From an uncultured Planctomycetia bacterium (GTDB taxonomy: Bacteria; Omnitrophota; Gorgyraeia; 2-02-FULL-51-18): a stretch of 61,854 nucleotides of DNA. The translations under genes and the position numbers were made by a program. The DNA lies in assembly GCA_964642015.1 (NCBI GenBank), contig CAZXLF010000005.1:1-61854 (forward strand), given 5' to 3'. The notes below the pieces were generated by a model. It searched no databases, had not been told where the DNA came from, and saw only the letters and a list, made by a program, of their open reading frames with translations. Shown in pieces: positions 21,772-30,260 of the stretch; position 1 is the stretch's first letter; every line of letters starts with the position of its first letter.

Positions 21772-22302
21772 TTAAAAGAAAAGAAAAAATCCGTTCGCAA
21801 AATAAACGCAGGCAACGATGCCAAATAGAAGACCCGCGAGCCACATCTCTTTTCTTTTCACAAGCGCGCTCACCGAAGACAACATGATGGCAATCTGAAA
21901 GAATACCACAGACAAGGAGAACTGGCCGCCTCTTCGGTGCACAAGCGCATTCTGTTTGCCGACATCTTCGGCCTGAGTTTTGAGATCGCTTTTTTCTTTG
22001 TCATAGCGGCTTATTTCCGATACGGCGGATGAAAGCTTTTTTTCGATCAGATTTTTTTGTTCAGGATTGGCAGCGGCACCGGGTTGTTGCGCCTCCAAAA
22101 TATCTTTTTCTATTTCCCGCAAATTCTGTTTAATGCTCTTCGACTGGAAATACGCCCACTGGCTTCCTTCCTTCGCGGTCAGGATCTGATTGGTCGCCAC
22201 ACACCCGCCTGCTCGTGACGCGGCGATCGCCGTCATGACAGCGAGTATAGTTGTGGTTACGGCGACTCCTTTCATCCATTTTTCTTGCAAAATGTCAGCC
22301 AT
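21772..22302 (-). CDS. DUF4337 family membrane protein
   Basis: VAVTTTILAVMTAI, SQWAYFQSKSIKQ, FFQIAIMLSSVSAL. Confidence 0.75.
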   Translation of the reverse strand: MADILQEKWMKGVAVTTTILAVMTAIAASRAGGCVATNQILTAKEGSQWAYFQSKSIKQNLREIEKDILEAQQPGAAANPEQKNLIEKKLSSAVSEISRYDKEKSDLKTQAEDVGKQNALVHRRGGQFSLSVVFFQIAIMLSSVSALVKRKEMWLAGLLFGIVACVYFANGFFLFF

Positions 22303-22330
22303 TTTTTCTCCTTTGCTTTGGGATCTTTTT

Positions 22331-22888
22331 CTAGTTGTGGTTCACATTATTGCCAGATCGCTTAGAGAAGCACAATTTTACAAATGTCTTGGCAAATTCC
22401 TGCTGGACCAGAGGAATACTTTCAGTTCGCGTCATAGGTGATTTTTTTACTCGGGCCATTACGCGATACTTCCAGATCTCTTTTTTGGATTTTAGGTCGG
22501 TAACTGTCATATCAGCCTGGAGCCTTGCATATTCTCGAACAGTGATCGCATCATATATAGCGGTGCTTGTCCCCATTAACATATCAACCGGCCCATGCTC
22601 GGTCCACATAAACTCTTGGATGTCGGTGTCGACGGACAGATCCGCGGTTTGAGGATCCTGCACCACTTTAAAATTAATTGTCTTTCTCATCTCCAGCCCA
22701 TTCTCGATGTATTTCTTCAGCGCTTTAATATCTGTCTCGTGTTCCTTTGTAGAATCCTTAGGCTCCGCCACATACACTTTTACATCTTTCCCTTCCAGCA
22801 TCGGATAGAGACTTTGAGGAGTTTCTGCCCAGGAAATAGAAGTTATAAATATAGAAAAAAACGCAACGGTTAGGATTCTAAATTTCAT
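22331..22888 (-). CDS. Secreted hypothetical protein
   Basis: Signal peptide ending SWA; 185-aa open frame; no recognisable motif. Confidence 0.65.
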   Translation of the reverse strand: MKFRILTVAFFSIFITSISWAETPQSLYPMLEGKDVKVYVAEPKDSTKEHETDIKALKKYIENGLEMRKTINFKVVQDPQTADLSVDTDIQEFMWTEHGPVDMLMGTSTAIYDAITVREYARLQADMTVTDLKSKKEIWKYRVMARVKKSPMTRTESIPLVQQEFAKTFVKLCFSKRSGNNVNHN

Positions 22889-22962
22889 TTTAAATTAAGC
22901 TCCCATTTTTAGTGGCGATGGTGGTTTGTTCTCTCCCAACTCCTATTACATTACTTAAAAAC

Positions 22963-23268
22963 TGTGCCCGGCAGGGTTGCCGCCTTCCGCTCGCGTCTAA
23001 AGGCGCTCACTTCAGGTCGGGCACTCGAGCAGCTGACGCCGAAGAGTCGGCTTTTCCGCCACTGGCGGCGCCGCTCTCACTTCAACTCCTGCTAGGTACG
23101 TCCGTATAAAACTCGTGTGCCCGGCAGGGTTGCCGCCTTCCGCTCGCGTCTAAAGGCGCTCACTTCAGGTCGGGCACTCGAGCAGCTGACGCCGAAGAGT
23201 CGGCTTTTCCGCCACTGGCGGCGCCGCTCTCACTTCAACTCCTGCTAGGTACGTCCGTATAAAACTCG
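22963..23268. repeat. Two tandem 153-bp units with tRNA-Arg-derived inverted ends
   Basis: Units start at 22963 and 23116; each begins TGTGCCCGGCAGG (identical to the tRNA end at 23269) and ends with the complementary TTCAACTCCTGCTAGGTAC. Confidence 0.9.
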
Positions 23269-23342
23269 TGTGCCCGGCAGGAGTTGAACCTGCAACCCTC
23301 TGATCCGTAGTCAGATACTCTATCCAGTTGAGCTACGGGCAC
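23269..23342 (-). tRNA. tRNA-Arg(ACG)
   Basis: GTGCCCG acceptor, TCTGA-CT-ACG-GA-TCAGA anticodon arm, GGTTCAACTCC T-arm. Confidence 0.95.
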
Positions 23343-23362
23343 AAAACTTGTAAATGGTAGGA

Positions 23363-23391
23363 ATTATAACGGTTTACTACGTATCTTGGAA
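23363..23391 (-). promoter_or_regulatory. Putative native tRNA-Arg promoter
   Basis: TTCCAA-17 nt-TATAAT ending about 20 nt before the tRNA. Confidence 0.5.
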
Positions 23392-23400
23392 AGCTGTAGT

Positions 23401-23439
23401 TTAAACTCCTAAGTGCTTGGTGTCAATATAGGGACAAAA
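23401..23439. repeat. Junction motif, right half only (left island edge)
   Basis: TTAAACTCCTAAGTGCTTGGTGTCAATATAGGGACAAAA, identical to 27989-28027. Confidence 0.9.
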
Positions 23440-23456
23440 AGCCAAACTTGCTTTAT

Positions 23457-24650
23457 TTATTTGATGATGTTCGCACATTGGGCCAAAAATAGTAATCTAT
23501 CATGAAGAGTGGGATGATCCGATTTCAGCTCTCTTGGTGATGAGGGAATAAATAAACTAGATTTCTTGTCCTTTGCTAACTGCTCGACCAACAATTTAAA
23601 CTCGTTTTCATCAATATATCGGTCGCTATAGAATTGCTTGAATTGTTCTTGTATATGTACTTTCCAGCGTTTTCTCCAAATTTTCAGTCGATTTGCTTTA
23701 CGTATTTTTAGTCTCATAATAAGACTCTGCCATAGACTCAGTCTATCTGGTTTTGAGCGGACTTGGAGACGTTGCACCAAACGCAATGCTTGTTCTTCTC
23801 CCGAATCGTTTCTAGTTCTCTGTTCCTCAATACCCATGGCTGCTTTTTCTGCAAGCTCATCCACAGAATCAACCTGAAAACCACTCGCCAATAACATTTC
23901 ATGAGCCTTTTCCCACAGGTTACAGAAATATTCATTCCTTGCATAAATGTTGATTAAAGAGTTAACCGCTGGTAGCAGTCCAGCATAAACGAGTGCATTA
24001 TAGTCAGCGAGTAATTCACAAGCTCGACCAAAACGCTTTGAGCGATACAAAAATGGCCACGGTTGTATCAAGTGCCCCAACTCATGAGCAACTACGGCAC
24101 GGATTTGGTCCCTATTGAGGATAAAGAAAAGGCTCTTATGAAGAACTATTTTTTCAGCTTTAGTATGATGGTCCACAAGATTTGTATAGAATGCGTTTGC
24201 AGCGGACATGTGTTTGTCATAAACAAATACTCCTGGAACTATTAAGAATCCCATTCGAATAGATAGTTTCTCGAGCACATCATGAATTTCAGCTTGCGTA
24301 AACCGCCCGATAGTTTCTTTACTCGAATCTATCTCAACCAATACCAGCTGCTGTTCATAATATTTTTCTATTGATAGAGGCGCTAATAAACGAACTAATA
24401 ACAAATAAATAATACAGACAATTATCACTACTGAGACAATGCCAATAATATCTTCTAAAACCTTTCCATACATGAACACAAAAGCTGGCGAACTGTATAT
24501 CACAACGATAGTGCATGCAATTAGCACAAGGCTATAGAGGACGATTTTATGAATCAATACATAACGCTGAACATAAGACCTTAGATGCTTGACTTGCGGG
24601 GGGATTAATTCTTCTCGTTGACGAACAATGGGTTTAGAAATTAATTCCAT
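23457..24650 (-). CDS. M48-like membrane zinc metalloprotease
   Basis: Two N-terminal TMs, ANAFY, IRAVVAHELGH (HExxH), CELLAD, SDHPTLHDRL. Confidence 0.75.
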   Translation of the reverse strand: MELISKPIVRQREELIPPQVKHLRSYVQRYVLIHKIVLYSLVLIACTIVVIYSSPAFVFMYGKVLEDIIGIVSVVIIVCIIYLLLVRLLAPLSIEKYYEQQLVLVEIDSSKETIGRFTQAEIHDVLEKLSIRMGFLIVPGVFVYDKHMSAANAFYTNLVDHHTKAEKIVLHKSLFFILNRDQIRAVVAHELGHLIQPWPFLYRSKRFGRACELLADYNALVYAGLLPAVNSLINIYARNEYFCNLWEKAHEMLLASGFQVDSVDELAEKAAMGIEEQRTRNDSGEEQALRLVQRLQVRSKPDRLSLWQSLIMRLKIRKANRLKIWRKRWKVHIQEQFKQFYSDRYIDENEFKLLVEQLAKDKKSSLFIPSSPRELKSDHPTLHDRLLFLAQCANIIK

Positions 24651-24745
24651 GTTGTCATTTCTTAATGGGCATTTACTAACTCCTACTTTTTATTAGCCTC
24701 ACTTGCACTCTTTCGGCTGTCATTAATGGGTACAGCAAAATTTTG

Positions 24746-25132
24746 TCATGCCAGACTTTTTTTCTCTTTTGGTTTAAGAGATATGGTAATGATCTTTTCA
24801 CCTGCTAAATCACTTACACTTATAGGATCCACCCAACTTGTATCCATTGGATGGCTGTAAGCTGCGATACTTATATTTGCATTAATGTCATAATTTCTAT
24901 TGTTCAAAATGGAAAATGTTACTTCACTGCTCACCTGGCTTTTTGTCCAATTGACTTCTCTAATAAGTACTGGCTGAAACATTGAAACTACATACTCTGT
25001 CACTTCAATAATTCCAAACCCAATTAATACCAAAGCCATGGCAATTCCTATGATTCCAGAGCGTGATATACTTTTTCTAGCTTTGACATGCTTGGGTTTA
25101 AAATCCGAGAAAATCTTACGCATAGGATTCAA
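24746..25132 (-). CDS. Hypothetical single-TM protein, possibly frameshift-truncated
   Basis: One TM segment followed by a beta-rich region; an A7 run precedes the stop. Confidence 0.55.
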   Translation of the reverse strand: MNPMRKIFSDFKPKHVKARKSISRSGIIGIAMALVLIGFGIIEVTEYVVSMFQPVLIREVNWTKSQVSSEVTFSILNNRNYDINANISIAAYSHPMDTSWVDPISVSDLAGEKIITISLKPKEKKSLA

Positions 25133-25169
25133 TCGTTCTCTGTAATCCTATCGGCTTATTGATAAATAC

Positions 25170-25652
25170 TCAATTAAATTGTTCTTTGATTTTGGGTCGT
25201 GTGAGAAAAAAGATGAATAAAGAACTAAGTCCTACAGCAAATATATAAAATAATGTTGCAGCATAAAAACCTATATTAGCCAGTACATTTACATTTACAA
25301 TGGGTGGTCCTTGTGCCACCGTAGTAAGTGCAATAGAATGACAATATTGTTTAATATCATTCACAGACAGGAAGTACAGTGGGATAGCAATTAATATATC
25401 TAATGAATTAACTATTATAGCAATCCTCCTCATTATATTATTCAATCTTAAAATACCAATCCCCGTAATAAATCCTATTACTGATGAAAGCATTCCGATT
25501 GAAAATAATGCTACAACAGTAGCTTTATTAAAAGACTTATGCAATTCAAAGTAGGTTTGGAAATAAAAAACATTCAGTAAATTAAAAGTGTTAAGGATAA
25601 TGAATACCCAAGCAAATATTGTTATTCCTCTAGACCTTTTCAATGCCATCAA
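25170..25652 (-). CDS. Hypothetical membrane protein (about 4 TM)
   Basis: RSRGITIFAW start and FFLTRPKIKEQF end, with hydrophobic segments between. Confidence 0.65.
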   Translation of the reverse strand: MMALKRSRGITIFAWVFIILNTFNLLNVFYFQTYFELHKSFNKATVVALFSIGMLSSVIGFITGIGILRLNNIMRRIAIIVNSLDILIAIPLYFLSVNDIKQYCHSIALTTVAQGPPIVNVNVLANIGFYAATLFYIFAVGLSSLFIFFLTRPKIKEQFN

Positions 25653-25691
25653 TATCTCTCTTTAATCTTTCTTGGTCTTATTGACAAACAC

Positions 25692-25970
25692 TTACTTAAA
25701 TTGGCCCTTTGCTCGAGTGCTATTTCTTATAATTGTCTTAATAAGGTCAAATATTATAACTGCTATAGATAAAGCAAATAGAACGCCAAATATAAACATA
25801 AAACCCACATCATAACCGCCATAACACGGATATGAGGTTATAGGGTCTTGTTTACAGGGAAAATACACATTTATTAATCTCCCAATGGAAATAGTCGTAT
25901 TATTTGTAAAATAAAACAGCGTAGCCAAGACGCAAGCTACCAAACCCAGTCCGATATACTTGCTCATCAT
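25692..25970 (-). CDS. Small hypothetical membrane protein (2 TM)
   Basis: 92 aa; two TMs flanking a loop with a Cys pair (PCKQDPITSYPC). Confidence 0.55.
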   Translation of the reverse strand: MMSKYIGLGLVACVLATLFYFTNNTTISIGRLINVYFPCKQDPITSYPCYGGYDVGFMFIFGVLFALSIAVIIFDLIKTIIRNSTRAKGQFK

Positions 25971-26515
25971 CCTTTTTCCTTAGTCTTCTCTACCTTCTCA
26001 ACTTTGCCTATCATAGCCCCTAAAATAAGTTCCTTTAATTTTATAGCTCTTTTGTTGCGTGTAGCGAACCGTATCGTGTGTTTTGTGTTGCTTTCATCAA
26101 TATAATCCACTAGCAGCATATCGGTTGTTCCTAAAGTAAGAGACGGGCCGCTAATTGCACCCAATAATTCTGACGGTTTAAAGTCTCGTCTTTGTCCTTC
26201 GCTTAAGTCCTCTAATTCTACGTCCACTTCAACTATGCGATCATAAGGTATTGCAAGAAATGTCTCTTCTAAATCTTTCGTGCTAAAAAGTAAGCCTTTA
26301 TCTGAAATTTGTAGTCGCCCATCCTGCATGGGTTTCAAACTGGGGTAGCCGTCATAATAAACCACGAAATCAAAATGACTGTCGGGAGGAGGCTCATCAT
26401 CATTTATAGTTATCTTAAATACACAATAAAGAAAAAAGACGACGACAAAAACTATCAGGAGAATGTATAGGAATGGCATTGACTTTATTTTATGCCTGAA
26501 CCCAAGGAGGGTCAA
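25967..26515 (-). CDS. Hypothetical membrane-anchored protein
   Basis: N-terminal TM; beta-rich soluble domain (YYDGYP..GRLQISDKGLLF) reminiscent of bacterial PH-like folds. Confidence 0.6.
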   Translation of the reverse strand: MTLLGFRHKIKSMPFLYILLIVFVVVFFLYCVFKITINDDEPPPDSHFDFVVYYDGYPSLKPMQDGRLQISDKGLLFSTKDLEETFLAIPYDRIVEVDVELEDLSEGQRRDFKPSELLGAISGPSLTLGTTDMLLVDYIDESNTKHTIRFATRNKRAIKLKELILGAMIGKVEKVEKTKEKG

Positions 26516-26544
26516 TTTCTAAAAACTTAACCCTATCCTTAGGA

Positions 26545-26611
26545 TCTGACCACTAATCGAATGCTCTTGGGCTAAACTCCTGCCGTGCTGGTATCAATAT
26601 GGTGACAGAAA
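26545..26611. repeat. Junction motif, full diverged copy
   Basis: TCTGACCACTAATCGAATGCTC-ttggg-CTAAACTCCTGCCGTGCTGGTATCAATATGGTGACAGAAA. Confidence 0.8.
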
Positions 26612-26654
26612 CTATACGTTAGCTCTAACGTCTCTCTATAGAACATCATTCGGT

Positions 26655-27032
26655 TTATTGCTTTATTTCATCTAACTCATTTAACATTTTTATATATTTT
26701 CGATCCGCGATGAATCCTGCAACGCACCAAACTTCAATCATCACCAATACAGTAATACCCATCAACAAAACCATTGAGTAAATCTCCTTGACCAAGGATC
26801 TGTTTAGCTTTGTAACCTCAATAACATATCTCTTCATTTTTGATTCAGAGACTGTAGTGGTTTTTTGATTTGAATAAAATTGGGCAATTCCATCCATATG
26901 GGCCAGGATAGAATTAAATAACACAGTTATTGATACTAAACAAATGGACAAGACAACAAGCGAAAAACAACCGAGGATAATTGAAATTTTCTGACTTTTT
27001 TTATGTTTATGGATTATTTGCTCTTTCCCCAA
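26655..27032 (-). CDS. Hypothetical 2-TM protein
   Basis: 125 aa with two hydrophobic segments; GGAGG SD upstream. Confidence 0.6.
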   Translation of the reverse strand: MGKEQIIHKHKKSQKISIILGCFSLVVLSICLVSITVLFNSILAHMDGIAQFYSNQKTTTVSESKMKRYVIEVTKLNRSLVKEIYSMVLLMGITVLVMIEVWCVAGFIADRKYIKMLNELDEIKQ

Positions 27033-27131
27033 TTATCCCTCCTTTGCTAACCTTATACCCTTAACGTTAACCAACTAGACAATATTTTATTTAGCAAAAA
27101 TCTTATCGTCTAAATAAGAAACCGCTTATAA

Positions 27132-27167
27132 TCTGACCGCGGATCGGATGATCCTAAATTAAAATTC
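27132..27167. repeat. Junction motif, left half plus core
   Basis: TCTGACCGCGGATCGGATGATC-ctaaa-TTAAAATTC; the TTA is the stop codon of 27159..27827. Confidence 0.7.
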
Positions 27168-27827
27168 TATAGCTGTCTGTACAAAATAGACTGGTGATCT
27201 TTCTCCAATTTTCTTGGAAACCTTATTGATAGAAGCTATACGAGCATACTTAAAATCCATCGCCATAACAAAATTTCTCTGAAAAATACTCGCAAGTGGT
27301 TTTCTGATGAAAATGAACGCAAAAATATTTAGGACAAGAATTCCTATTACTATGAGTAAGTTAAACTTAACTAAAGGGAACAAAATTGAGGAAATGAATA
27401 AAAGAAGCAATCCAAATCCCTGCACGACAATTGCCGTTGACCCACACCTAGGTGAAAAAGCACATTCATAATCGTTCATACGAAATTTTTCAATAAAAAC
27501 TGTGAATGCAGTTTCAATGTCTCTTTTATTCTCAATCTTCCCATATATCCGAAACCCCTTATTCTCAGCCTTGCCTCCTATTCCCCTTCTTAACTTATAT
27601 GCTTTTTCTAAACATACTATCGTTCCATGCTCTAGTAAATGGTTTCGTTTTGCTTCGACAGATAATTTGATACCCCTCGCACAAACTGAAACTAGAGGTA
27701 AGTACAAAACAATCAGAAGAATGATTATCCAAGGGGATAAAAAACCGAAAGCTATTGCCGCGTCATAGCCACAAAGACCGAAACAAGCTACTAAAATATA
27801 AAAGATATAGTAGCCAATCCATGACAT
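27159..27827 (-). CDS. DUF6391-like membrane protein
   Basis: KRNHLLEHGTI and FSPRCGS motifs recalled for this family. Confidence 0.55.
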   Translation of the reverse strand: MSWIGYYIFYILVACFGLCGYDAAIAFGFLSPWIIILLIVLYLPLVSVCARGIKLSVEAKRNHLLEHGTIVCLEKAYKLRRGIGGKAENKGFRIYGKIENKRDIETAFTVFIEKFRMNDYECAFSPRCGSTAIVVQGFGLLLLFISSILFPLVKFNLLIVIGILVLNIFAFIFIRKPLASIFQRNFVMAMDFKYARIASINKVSKKIGERSPVYFVQTAIEF

Positions 27828-27961
27828 TCTTCTGTAGAAATAAAAAACGATTTTCTTGAAGGATTGGCTTATCAGACTATCTTCTCCTAATCTTAGTTTC
27901 CTATTTTTGTGGTGCTTTTTGAAGAAAATTTGACGCCAGCAAATCTCAAGTTCAAAGAGTG

Positions 27962-28027
27962 TCTGATATCTAATCCAATGTTCTCAAGTTAAACTCCTAA
28001 GTGCTTGGTGTCAATATAGGGACAAAA
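27962..28027. repeat. Junction motif, full copy
   Basis: TCTGATATCTAATCCAATGTTC-tcaag-TTAAACTCCTAAGTGCTTGGTGTCAATATAGGGACAAAA. Confidence 0.85.
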
Positions 28028-28043
28028 TGATTTAATTATGTGA

Positions 28044-28946
28044 CTATAAGCAGTGTTGCAAAAAGACCATCACTAAATTCATCACCAATCTTGCGCTTTT
28101 TTCACTTGCATCAAAAACACTAGGGTGGGCATTACCCTTTTCTTTCCGTTCTTGAGCCAGAACTGATTCAATACTTCTACAAATTTCTCTCGAAATAGAA
28201 TCGCTTGGAATCAATCCTTTCTTTTGAGCTTCTGGTATTAAGACAGATATTTTTCCTTCGCCAATTTTTTTGCCAAGGGTAATTTGCAAAAAAGCCTCTA
28301 GTGCTGATATTGCATGCGTAATACAAGTGCCAAAACTCTCTTTCGTATTCTTTTTATACTCGTCAAAACTATTAAATAGAAGCTGATTAACTTTTGCCCA
28401 TTTATGGCTAGATAAAGCGGCCAATACTGGAACATATATGTCTTCTGTCAATCTCCTATCTTGCTTAGGAATGATGCCATTCCTTGTTATGTGAACGTTC
28501 AGACCAAATTGAGAAAAGACGTCATTAAAATCTTTCATAACATGCTCTATATTTTCACGTCGCCATTTTTCAACGTCCTTTTCAAATTTCGGCGTACGCG
28601 TGTTTATTGCATAAAATATCGACTTTAAATAAATCGAGAACATTTGTAAGACAACATCTGTCGATTCATTCATAAAAATATGATAAAAATCCTTTAGCGC
28701 AGCCTCATAGTTTGCATTCGTTAAAAAATGTCTGCCAAAACTCTTAGCTTTATATAATCGATTAAGAGCACTGATTGAGTCGATAACGTGAGATAAATTT
28801 CCATCTGAAAAATATTTACCCAGATGAGCCCACATTAGAGATTTTTCCTGCGGATTCAATGCGCTCCAATCTCTAAGACCAAAATCTGGTCTTAATACTT
28901 TTTCGGCATTTGGATTAATCTCATTCCAAAGTTTAAATTCGCTCAT
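28044..28946 (-). CDS. Putative abortive-infection-type protein (AbiJ-like N-terminus, Abi_C/HEPN-like C-terminus)
   Basis: CITHAISALEAFLQ helix and ERKEKGNAHPS R..AH motif near the C-terminus. Confidence 0.5.
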   Translation of the reverse strand: MSEFKLWNEINPNAEKVLRPDFGLRDWSALNPQEKSLMWAHLGKYFSDGNLSHVIDSISALNRLYKAKSFGRHFLTNANYEAALKDFYHIFMNESTDVVLQMFSIYLKSIFYAINTRTPKFEKDVEKWRRENIEHVMKDFNDVFSQFGLNVHITRNGIIPKQDRRLTEDIYVPVLAALSSHKWAKVNQLLFNSFDEYKKNTKESFGTCITHAISALEAFLQITLGKKIGEGKISVLIPEAQKKGLIPSDSISREICRSIESVLAQERKEKGNAHPSVFDASEKSARLVMNLVMVFLQHCL

Positions 28947-28986
28947 ATGTATTCTCTTTCAAGTTTCATTATGATTGTAACTAAAA

Positions 28987-29008
28987 TCTGACCACTAACC
29001 CGATGCTC
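28987..29008. repeat. Junction motif, left half only (right island edge)
   Basis: TCTGACCACTAACCCGATGCTC, 19/22 identical to 26545-26566; no right half follows. Confidence 0.8.
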
Positions 29009-29183
29009 TTTTGAGCAAGGGTATAATTAGCCTCAATACAAGGTATTGTAGAACAATGACTTATTGGAATCTAGTTTGGAACAAGTCTGACAGTTTGAGC
29101 TTGCGGGGACAAATTGGGGTCAAAATCGAGCATTTTTACAGCGTTTGCTTTATGATCCAGAACTGGTCTGACTCAGAAACCGG

Positions 29184-29720
29184 TCAATGTTCGTTCAAAT
29201 ATGTTTTGAGCTTTGCCCAGGTTTTCGGACCGACCATGCCGTTCACTTCAAGCTGATTGTTCTTCTGAAAAGTCATGATCGCGTTCTGCGTGTCCTGATC
29301 GATAGTGCCGTTAATAGGGCCGCGGTATAATTTCGCATTCCTAAGAGCGATCTGGGCGATCTGGTTAAATGACAGATCCGATTTCAGCACATCAGGAACA
29401 CTGGCAGTGGCCAGCACTTCTTCTATGACAAACTGAGATTTTTTGTTAGAAACGGTTTGCCGCGCTTCCCGCGCCGCGGTAGCAGTGGTTTTACTCGAAT
29501 GTTTGGAAATTTTGGCGTGGCCGAAGAAAAAGCCCATGATGCCCAGTAACACGATCAATGATAAAATCGACAGAATAAATAACGGAGTGCGGTCCGCGCG
29601 CGGTTTTTCTCTCTGAAGACGCGCCGGTATTTCCGCAAATATAGGAGCATTGTCGGACAATGTTTTTTGTTTGTCTTTTTCTTGCACGGCTTTCTTCAAA
29701 GCTTCATTCATAACGCTCAT
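29184..29720 (-). CDS. GspB/ExeB-like membrane protein with a C-terminal peptidoglycan-binding domain
   Basis: MSVMNEALKKA N-terminus, TM segment, GPINGTIDQDTQNAIMTFQKNNQLEVNGMVGPKTW (PG_binding_1). Confidence 0.8.
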   Translation of the reverse strand: MSVMNEALKKAVQEKDKQKTLSDNAPIFAEIPARLQREKPRADRTPLFILSILSLIVLLGIMGFFFGHAKISKHSSKTTATAAREARQTVSNKKSQFVIEEVLATASVPDVLKSDLSFNQIAQIALRNAKLYRGPINGTIDQDTQNAIMTFQKNNQLEVNGMVGPKTWAKLKTYLNEH

Positions 29721-29783
29721 TGCGGCATATTCCTTACAAGTCTATGATGACCCATATTATACAAAATGACGGCGAGGATAGTC

Positions 29784-30260
29784 TCACTTTTTTTCGGATC
29801 TTTTCTGATTGGGATTAAAGATAGGCAGTTCATACTTCCCTTCGCCCATCGATAAGACCACGGAACTTTCGCGGATATTCAGGATCGTGTGACCGTTGAT
29901 CGTATCACCGATCGTATGGACTTCGCCGTTGATCACGGCCAGCGGATTCGCCTTGTCCCATACGATACCGGTCACCGTCAAGTCCGACAGCGCAGGCATG
30001 CCGTTGGCCAGCATCATCGCGCCAAACGGGTCCTTGCCCCACTCGCTGTCCCAGATCGTATCTTCTTCTTCAGTCCTTTTTTCGCTCTGACGGATCTGCT
30101 GGACTATATTAACATCACCGGCAAAATTGGTTTCGGACGGCGCGGCAACGACTTCAGAAGCCGCATGAGGCCTTTTAGAAAGCACATTGGTCCACAAAAG
30201 AAAAAAGAAAACACCCACCAAGACAACAGCTATGATGAGATTTCTTTTCTGCACGTCCAT
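29784..30260 (-). CDS. PilP/GspC-like pilus assembly protein
   Basis: TM segment, KDPF, LTVTGIVWDKANPLAVING. Confidence 0.65.
   Translation of the reverse strand: MDVQKRNLIIAVVLVGVFFFLLWTNVLSKRPHAASEVVAAPSETNFAGDVNIVQQIRQSEKRTEEEDTIWDSEWGKDPFGAMMLANGMPALSDLTVTGIVWDKANPLAVINGEVHTIGDTINGHTILNIRESSVVLSMGEGKYELPIFNPNQKRSEKK

Follow-up and report, generated by a model that had tools for sequence, protein, structure and literature searches.

The AT-rich island beside tRNA-Arg(ACG)

The island in this report lies in a 61,854-nt stretch of DNA, here called the window, which comprises positions 1 to 61,854 of contig CAZXLF010000005.1 (assembly GCA_964642015.1) of an uncultured bacterium assigned to the Omnitrophota. 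An AT-rich block of ~5.7 kb spans 23401-29130, with a GC content of 33 to 37%, compared to ~45% on either side. It holds eight open reading frames, all on the minus strand, grouped in four modules with copies of a short junction motif between them and at the edges. Alignment identifies this motif as a decayed copy of the neighboring tRNA-Arg(ACG), running from the anticodon stem to the 3' end and followed by ~22 conserved non-tRNA bases, and the junctions are probably relics of attachment sites. The tRNA gene and the cargo are as follows.

23268..23342, minus strand: intact tRNA-Arg(ACG), the genome's only ACG isoacceptor and the source sequence of the junction motif
23363..23392, minus strand: promoter-like site of the tRNA, TTTCCA-18-TATAAT, between the tRNA and the island edge
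23457..26515, minus strand: module 1, five genes (M48/HtpX-like membrane metalloprotease and four small membrane or unknown proteins)
23457-24650, minus strand: M48/HtpX-like membrane metalloprotease of module 1
24746-25132, 25170-25652, 25692-25970, and 25967-26515, minus strand: the small membrane or unknown proteins of module 1
26655..27032, minus strand: module 2, one gene, a 125-aa membrane protein with no function assigned
27159..27827, minus strand: module 3, one gene (gene 7), a DUF6391 membrane protein
28044..28946, minus strand: module 4, one gene (gene 8), an Abi_C/HEPN-like protein of the STM4504 family, whose homologues carry PF14355

The near flank of the island is the 5' side of tRNA-Arg(ACG), 58 nt from the first base of the tRNA. 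The far flank is the 3' end of a pilus/secretion-like operon, the last gene of which encodes a PG_binding_1 protein (29184-29720). None of the eight island genes has a paralogue elsewhere in the 2.2-Mb genome, in agreement with a preliminary description of the locus, made from the sequence alone, in which the genes were called co-oriented, AT-rich, and unrelated. The closest homologue of the module 1 protease is 50% identical and comes from an Omnitrophica metagenome-assembled genome, where it has a non-island housekeeping context. For the DUF6391 protein, a comparison with 400 other genomes of the phylum gave no homologue. A homologue of the module 4 protein at 53% identity is flanked by DUF3800 and HNH genes, and the module 4 gene is, by its sequence, probably a defense gene. 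With modules that differ in phyletic pattern and genes of unrelated history, the island appears to be foreign and mosaic.

The junction motif and its surroundings

The left half of the motif, TCTGAYCNCNRAYCSRATGMTC, is found at 26545, 27132, 27962, and 28987, each time on the plus strand, a count of 4 compared to 0.22 expected from shuffled sequences. At three of these positions the core follows at a distance of exactly 27 nt (26545/26572, 27132/27159, and 27962/27989). The right half at the left island edge, 23401-23439, is identical to 27989-28027 at 39 of 39 positions, and the right half at 26572-26610 is 69% identical to 23401-23439. The TTA at 27159-27161, within the core of junction C, is the stop codon of the gene at 27159..27827 on the minus strand. 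Apart from the shuffle count and the 69% figure, these points were made in the preliminary description, which saw here an array of gene cassettes with three uniform internal junctions, a right half alone at the left edge, and a left half alone at the right edge; they are borne out, and it is the uniformity of the internal junctions and the cleanness of the edges that hold in part. The junctions, all on the plus strand, are listed here.

23401..23439, plus strand: junction A, right half; tRNA-like copy of the T-loop to the 3' end (TTAAACTCCTAAGTGCTTGG) plus a 19-nt extension; 39/39 identical to junction D; hidden Markov model (HMM) E=1.2e-7
26544..26614, plus strand: junction B, full site; tRNA-Arg positions 26-72 without gaps, then the extension GGTATCAATATGGTGACAGAA
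27131..27201, plus strand: junction C; left half nearest to the tRNA (18/27), with the CGGATC of the anticodon arm kept; right half weak
27961..28030, plus strand: junction D, full site; right half identical to that of A
28986..29010, plus strand: junction E, left half only; anticodon-arm-like; 21/24 identical to the left half of B; HMM E=0.006
29085..29127, plus strand: junction G, a candidate shortened junction; TCTGAC, then AGTTTGAGC, then two 11-nt GGKGWCAAWW repeats

Junctions B and D are the full sites that had been described. The right half of C falls in the coding end of gene 7, where it bears a weak likeness to the others, and it is absent from the repeat family D3. At the left edge the right half is clear, and the left half may not be missing altogether: ACTACGTATC at 23376-23385 matches the tRNA anticodon loop ACTACGGATC, the A region as a whole resembles the tRNA with p=0.001, and a strongly decayed left half may lie at 23375-23400. 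At the right edge the left half of E stands, and the edge itself is not clean, since the junction-like element G lies ~100 nt past E. In G, TCTGAC is followed by TTTGAGC, and the two repeats resemble the right-half extension. A G pattern, chosen post hoc, has 41 occurrences in 4.4 Mb (both strands), so that ~0.002 would be expected here, and 29085-29127 is probably an extra, shortened junction.

On the plus strand TCTGAC is present at 29086 and 29167, with GGxxCAAT-type words behind each, and the 29167 copy overlaps the stop codon of the PG-binding gene (29184). The TCTGAC words at 29085-29200 may be further decayed junction copies, of which the first alone passes the post hoc pattern test. 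A displaced fragment composed of a -10 element, leader, and tRNA 5' end (first 18 nt) was considered for 29092-29150 on the minus strand and was set aside as marginal (p ~0.03). The match is ambiguous because the symmetry of the acceptor stem makes the 5' and 3' ends of the tRNA alike; it may represent a 5' piece that was displaced in the manner of those at tRNA-His, which are described below.

When the junctions are laid on tRNA-Arg(ACG), the TCTGA of the motif aligns with the 5' strand of the anticodon stem, the (TAA/GGA) element aligns with the anticodon loop, and the core YTAAACTCC aligns with the T-loop and T-stem (TTCAACTCC in the tRNA). The tRNA-like stretch stops ~20 nt into the right half, beyond which come the ~22 non-tRNA bases that are kept between A/D and B (GGTRTCAATATRGNGACA). 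All copies share one ungapped register, in which B matches the tRNA at 31/47 positions, C at 27/47, D at 25/47, the left part of E at 15/27, and the right part of A at 10/20. Compared with 46 tRNAs in both orientations, the sense strand of tRNA-Arg(ACG) is the top match for A, B, and D and is tied for C, and against 1500 random genome segments the similarity has p<0.001 for B and D, 0.001 for A, and 0.005 for C. A 48-column profile built from B, C, and D scores tRNA-Arg(ACG) highest, at offset 26 with a z of ~4.4, and its six best tRNAs are all in sense orientation at an offset of 26-27. With an HMM made from the junctions only, the best non-self match in the whole genome is the tRNA-Arg gene itself (23316-23275, model positions 1-42), at E=0.08, with the next match at E=1.

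The boundaries of the copied block are also shared. It starts at tRNA position 26/27 in B, C, and E, and D reaches somewhat further left, to ~21; no junction copy retains the 5' third of the tRNA. Because of these common boundaries and the missing 5' third, the junctions are best taken as copies of a defined block rather than as randomly decayed tRNA genes. The edge sites divide at one place, with the similarity of E stopping at about position 50 and the identity of A and D beginning at position 54, at the T-stem/T-loop boundary. The internal sites have diverged to 65-76% identity, and their stem pairing is gone.

The motif is restricted to this locus. Genome-wide scans, including one with the junction HMM, found no further copy in the 2.2-Mb genome, and none turned up in the remaining 31 family genomes; the profile and HMM scan of the genome and the pattern scans of collections that the preliminary description had proposed gave no site outside the island apart from the weak tRNA-Arg match noted above. 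The composite junction pattern has 0 matches in viral, genome, and metagenome collections. The right-half pattern has 6 + 1 matches in collections, each confined to the pattern itself, and these are chance matches. A BLAST search with junction D against 400 genomes of the class returned nothing significant, and the island DNA has no match among plasmids or phages.

Two families of recombination site were tried against the motif. Junctions B, C, and D were folded as single-strand DNA on both strands as candidates for attC-like hairpins, with z from -1.46 to +1.63 and no conserved hairpin. A dif-like reading of the core was rejected, by eye only, against the E. coli dif consensus, since the inner palindrome is absent; in the same by-eye comparison the XTTAAAC in the core resembles the end of a XerD arm.

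The surroundings of the island were compared with those in relatives. An Rfam scan of 22000-30000 gave the tRNA as its sole match. In relatives of the family a CTTTACA-N17-TAGAAT element occurs upstream of tRNA-Arg at the place equivalent to the promoter-like site. No second genome of the genus was found in the collections searched, and the tRNA-Arg neighborhoods of the family genomes are not syntenic with the window locus. Among the tRNA-Arg(ACG) loci of the family (L081-L100), many contigs end tens to a few hundred bases from the tRNA, which suggests that repeats or variable DNA are present there. In one relative (L094) a 3' fragment of the tRNA (positions 36-73) lies 3.1 kb downstream of tRNA-Arg(ACG), forming a canonical small island. 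The flanking PG-binding protein has no close relative in the JGI metagenomes or in a set of 5.8 billion proteins. Logan unitigs (k=31) of four runs belonging to one study (SRR12313477-SRR12313480) show no difference from the window and break only within the 39-bp repeat; unitigs of this k are too short to span that repeat, and alternative forms of the island would be indistinguishable in them.

On the other side of the tRNA, directly behind its 3' end, lie two tandem GC-rich mini-elements of 153 nt (22963..23268, minus strand; family D1) that are 100% identical to each other, each opening on an antisense piece of the T-arm and closing with the last 12 nt of the tRNA in copy. They are outside the AT-rich island and are described for context. 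Members of the same family are found at C1:213017-213170, C1:213294-213424, C2:259595-259740, C4:2824-2971, and C9:45743-45897 (contig:positions), and in all, mini-elements of 130-155 nt trail at least six tRNA genes: Ala-GGC, Leu-CAA, Tyr-GTA, Arg-TCT, Leu-CAG, and Arg-ACG (twice). Each has an antisense T-arm copy first and a 12-21-nt sense copy of the 3' end of its own tRNA last, with a conserved core of the form GAAGAGAGC ... GCCGCCAGTGGCGGAAAAGC ... TGGCCGACCTGAAGC ... AAGGCGCC; the interior of the one behind tRNA-Leu(CAG), C9:45743-45897, is a run of N. In other genera of the family, too, tRNA-Arg is followed by antisense copies of the T-arm. The mini-elements have no Rfam match.

Assembly of the island and competing explanations

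Integrases that target tRNA genes duplicate a block running from the anticodon arm or the T-arm to the 3' end, and the ends of the resulting island are marked by a regenerated tRNA gene and a displaced fragment. The T-stem/T-loop is a common place for the crossover. A tRNA-like core with an adjoining arm is the layout of such an attachment (att) site, and we therefore read the junctions as attachment sites. Our preferred explanation, to which we give a somewhat better than even chance, is that four small modules, acquired independently and joined by site-specific recombination, make up the island as a stack without an integrase and that the junctions are attachment-site relics. Relics fit better than sites under selection, given the 65-76% identity of the internal sites and the loss of stem pairing. 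Among the islands catalogued by Islander, the T-stem region is the attP class of 1836 of 3919 (PMC4383910).

A tyrosine integrase supplied in trans would be the most likely enzyme, and it would cross over at the boundary of T-stem and T-loop. The modules would each carry a right half on one side and a left half on the opposite side, which would make the internal junctions composites and turn the outer ends into hybrids of a half-site and non-homologous DNA. On the plus strand the array would then be

y' / Ra - genes 1-5 - Lb.Rb - gene 6 - Lc.Rc - gene 7 - Ld.Rd - gene 8 - Le / x'

with L and R denoting left and right halves and the lower-case letters the junctions. In this otherwise canonical accretion array, unrelated DNA would have taken the place of both outer partners, one being the 5' part of the tRNA together with its own left half and the other the original 3' end. 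There are two conceivable routes to it. Circles could have been inserted serially into a secondary site and afterwards into hybrid sites, or an accreted composite could have left the canonical tRNA-Arg site as a circle and re-inserted through its Le.Ra junction, a kind of composite transfer considered in PMC5704250. The perfect 39-bp repeat shared by A and D brackets a 4.6-kb segment and would mark the latest event, either the insertion beside module 4 of a composite of 4.6 kb that spanned genes 7 to 1 and enclosed junctions B and C, which would be older, or the arrival of the whole stack as a single circle. Today the island would be a fossil or a cis-mobilizable array, similar to a cis-mobilizable element (CIME).

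Comparable structures occur in the same genome and support the attachment-site reading. A canonical tRNA-Met island (C6:128464-145414) is bounded by a 46-nt exact repeat of tRNA positions 32-77, 16.9 kb downstream of the tRNA, and contains the genome's only phage-type tyrosine integrase (C6:139725-140816). An integrase-less array, C2:18028-25792, lies on the 5' side of tRNA-His and includes two copies of the leader plus positions 1-42 (95-97% identical), each with a similar ~40-nt arm behind it. These fragments bound metabolic blocks of 5.4 kb and 2.2 kb, with cargo that by eye is dehydrogenase-like, cyclase-like, 6-phosphogluconate-dehydrogenase-like, and glucoamylase-like, along with a PaaK-like ligase.

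As for recombinases, the preliminary description had reported none in the window, and indeed the whole contig is without a Pfam match to Phage_integrase (tyrosine) or Resolvase (serine); none of the eight island proteins has a recombinase domain. In the genome as a whole, matches to PF00589 are confined to contigs C1, C3, and C6, and the recombinases encoded outside the island are XerC/XerD-like proteins, one phage-type integrase, and two serine recombinases. The latter two lie 2 kb apart at C1:224043-228204, the large one with an open frame of 522 aa (C1:224043-225611) and the small, resolvase-type one with 214 aa (C1:227560-228204), and they probably sit in another mobile element.

Several observations count against the preferred explanation. 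One concerns geometry: the tRNA fragments are antiparallel to the intact tRNA-Arg and on its 5' side, 7 nt upstream of the -35 element of the tRNA. Canonical integration leaves parallel fragments on the 3' side of the tRNA and cannot yield an antiparallel arrangement on the 5' side. Several inversion models for this orientation were worked through by hand and rejected, as each either breaks the single tRNA-Arg(ACG) gene, which is presumably essential, or needs extra sites that have no support. Still, that the sites came by chance to lie next to the very tRNA from which they derive is unlikely. Islander, for its part, counts a wrong fragment orientation as a class of false positives (PMC4383910). 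No integrase, integrase pseudogene, or excisionase was found in or near the island, and the integrase of the tRNA-Met island was rejected as the enzyme, since its att region has no arm motif in common with the junctions. The site family has no second copy in ~185,000 genomes, the JGI metagenomes, IMG/VR, plasmids, or phages. With one gene each, three of the modules are unusually small for decayed genomic islands, and the tRNA similarity of E and of the right half of C is not significant when each is taken alone. No empty site or variant array was found among the non-syntenic family loci.

The alternatives to stacked modules differ in how they account for the motif. An unlikely one, if marginally less so than the rest, is that the junctions are a reused regulatory module, the right half serving as a sigma-70-type promoter (TTGACA-N17-TAAxxT, minus strand) and the left half as the operator or 5' leader of four transcription units, with the tRNA likeness a coincidence or an exaptation. 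A minus-strand transcription unit does lie downstream of each junction, scoring of the right half of A as a promoter gives 10/12, and a transcript of this kind, as read from the sequence, would start (~+1) about where the left half begins. The region is not enriched in promoter-like sites, however (15 compared to 20.8 expected), the -10 elements of B (TAGCCC) and D (TAACTT) are poor, and the island has no regulator gene. Copy A would be useless before the tRNA's own promoter, and the identity stops exactly at the boundary of the left and right halves. The tRNA register common to all copies also argues against a regulatory origin. The motif stands upstream of no other gene in the genome or family; a role as promoter or regulator of backbone genes, which the preliminary description had held out as a possible alternative, has no support in the genome and its 31 relatives, and a general promoter or regulator motif is ruled out by the restriction of the motif to the island and the lack of enrichment.

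An active platform resembling an integron, in which a remote recombinase captures and excises circular cassettes through tRNA-like sites in place of attC, has in our judgment a slight chance; it is the idea of the preliminary description brought up to date with the tRNA result. Of the four modules, three are single genes of 0.5-1 kb, the size of cassettes, the perfect 39-bp repeat of A and D points to one recent event, and recombinases are encoded elsewhere in the genome. The left and right halves of a would-be cassette also co-vary, since Le is near Lb (21/24) and Rd is the same as Ra, a single data point with a roughly 1-in-6 probability by chance. Yet this is the sole array in all data searched, and its sites have no second instance; the four runs show no variation, within the limit that k=31 unitigs cannot resolve the 39-bp repeat; and no candidate enzyme is tied to the sites. 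The divergence and lost pairing of the internal sites point to decay rather than selection.

Two further explanations are both improbable. The first keeps the tRNA derivation and drops the dedicated site-specific system: the junctions would be the remains of duplicated tRNA-Arg genes or pseudogenes, a decayed array or local segmental duplications, among which genes were inserted by unrelated means. The junctions are indeed tRNA derived, and tRNA gene fragments are reported to be common in prokaryote genomes (PMC9897764). Such remains, however, would not explain the clustered starts (26/27 in B, C, and E; ~21 in D), the extension of ~22 non-tRNA nucleotides held in common, the 5' third that is in no copy, the single split point of the edge sites, or the foreign base composition of the island. 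The second would assign the junctions to the same system as the GC-rich mini-elements, with a mechanism other than classical integrase recombination. Antisense T-arm and sense 3'-end copies lie behind at least six tRNAs here and also in relatives, and on the minus strand the junctions show, by eye, an antisense T-arm followed by (A)AGAGC. The junction HMM nevertheless matches no mini-element, the likeness is confined to a few short words, and the mini-elements have a GC content of 59-63% (52% in one) compared to the AT-rich island.

Hardly credible to us is a tRNA-templated analogue of an integron, in which a remote recombinase would capture and shuffle tiny integrase-less cassettes via tRNA-like sites placed antiparallel before the tRNA-Arg promoter, with the right half as an outward promoter. 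Connected with this is the idea that the antisense tRNA-Arg sequences in cassette mRNAs may have a function of their own beside the HEPN-type gene.

Comparison with known systems

What had looked like a new cassette junction motif becomes understandable as a set of tRNA-derived attachment-site relics. Of the preliminary description, the idea that modules were inserted by site-specific recombination finds support, with sites found only at the island, a fixed split point at the edges, and differing phyletic patterns in its favor. The suggestion that they represent an undescribed capture system does not, since the motif reproduces, in degenerate form, the 3' two-thirds of the tRNA-Arg(ACG) beside it, the classical signature of a tRNA-targeting att site, and such stacks have been described. 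The case adds an example from a poorly known uncultured lineage in which small defense and membrane genes accumulate beside a tRNA without a resident integrase. Should the antiparallel position on the promoter side recur, this would suggest that whole accreted composites integrate at secondary sites or that a route of rearrangement has gone unrecognized. As a single fossil-like case, it carries modest weight.

Integrase-less stacks bounded by partial tRNAs are on record as CIMEs and accretion arrays (PMC5704250), tycheposon islands (10.1101/2020.12.28.424599), and Islander tandems (PMC4383910). CIMEs and tandem accretion are known from elements of the ICESt1/ICESt3 type (Pavlovic 2004 and Bellanger 2011, reviewed in PMC5704250). 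As in a CIME, the gene blocks of the island keep att sites on both sides and have no integration genes, stacking would proceed by recombination between att sites beside the target gene, and the whole composite may move as a unit. The island differs in that its fragments are antiparallel to the target tRNA and on its 5' side, its modules are far smaller (0.5-3 kb), and the genome, the family, the class sample, and public collections yielded no autonomous relative whose integrase and att site match.

With the islands of Islander, whose sublocation classes come from Williams 2002 (cited in PMC4383910), it shares boundaries made up of pieces of the neighboring tRNA that extend from the anticodon stem as far as the 3' end, and a split in the T-stem region; tandem arrays also occur there. 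The island fails two of the Islander filters, having no integrase gene and the wrong orientation of fragment and tRNA gene, and its fragments are 53-66% identical to the tRNA. Tycheposons of Prochlorococcus (10.1101/2020.12.28.424599) likewise form variable islands beside tRNAs, with partial tRNAs between successive integrations, extra partial tRNAs and degenerate remnants strewn through the islands, and defense genes in the cargo. Neither a tycheposon-type integrase nor a replication module was found here, however, and the host phylum and the anomalous orientation are different.

Integrons, and the clusters of attC sites lacking integron integrases (CALINs), offer likenesses of another kind. 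In both cases the cassettes are co-oriented and mostly single genes, and the sites that separate them vary from cassette to cassette; furthermore, the TT at which the identity of A and D starts belongs to a GTTAAAC word, in keeping with GTTRRRY. The differences are more fundamental. The absence of attC hairpins that the preliminary description had noted was confirmed on folding (z of about -1.5 to +1.6), IntI is missing, the sites are tRNA derived, and the island genes face the opposite way relative to the core. From its sequence, then, the island appears to work like a CIME or accretion array, or like the tycheposon islands studded with partial tRNAs, and it is not an integron.

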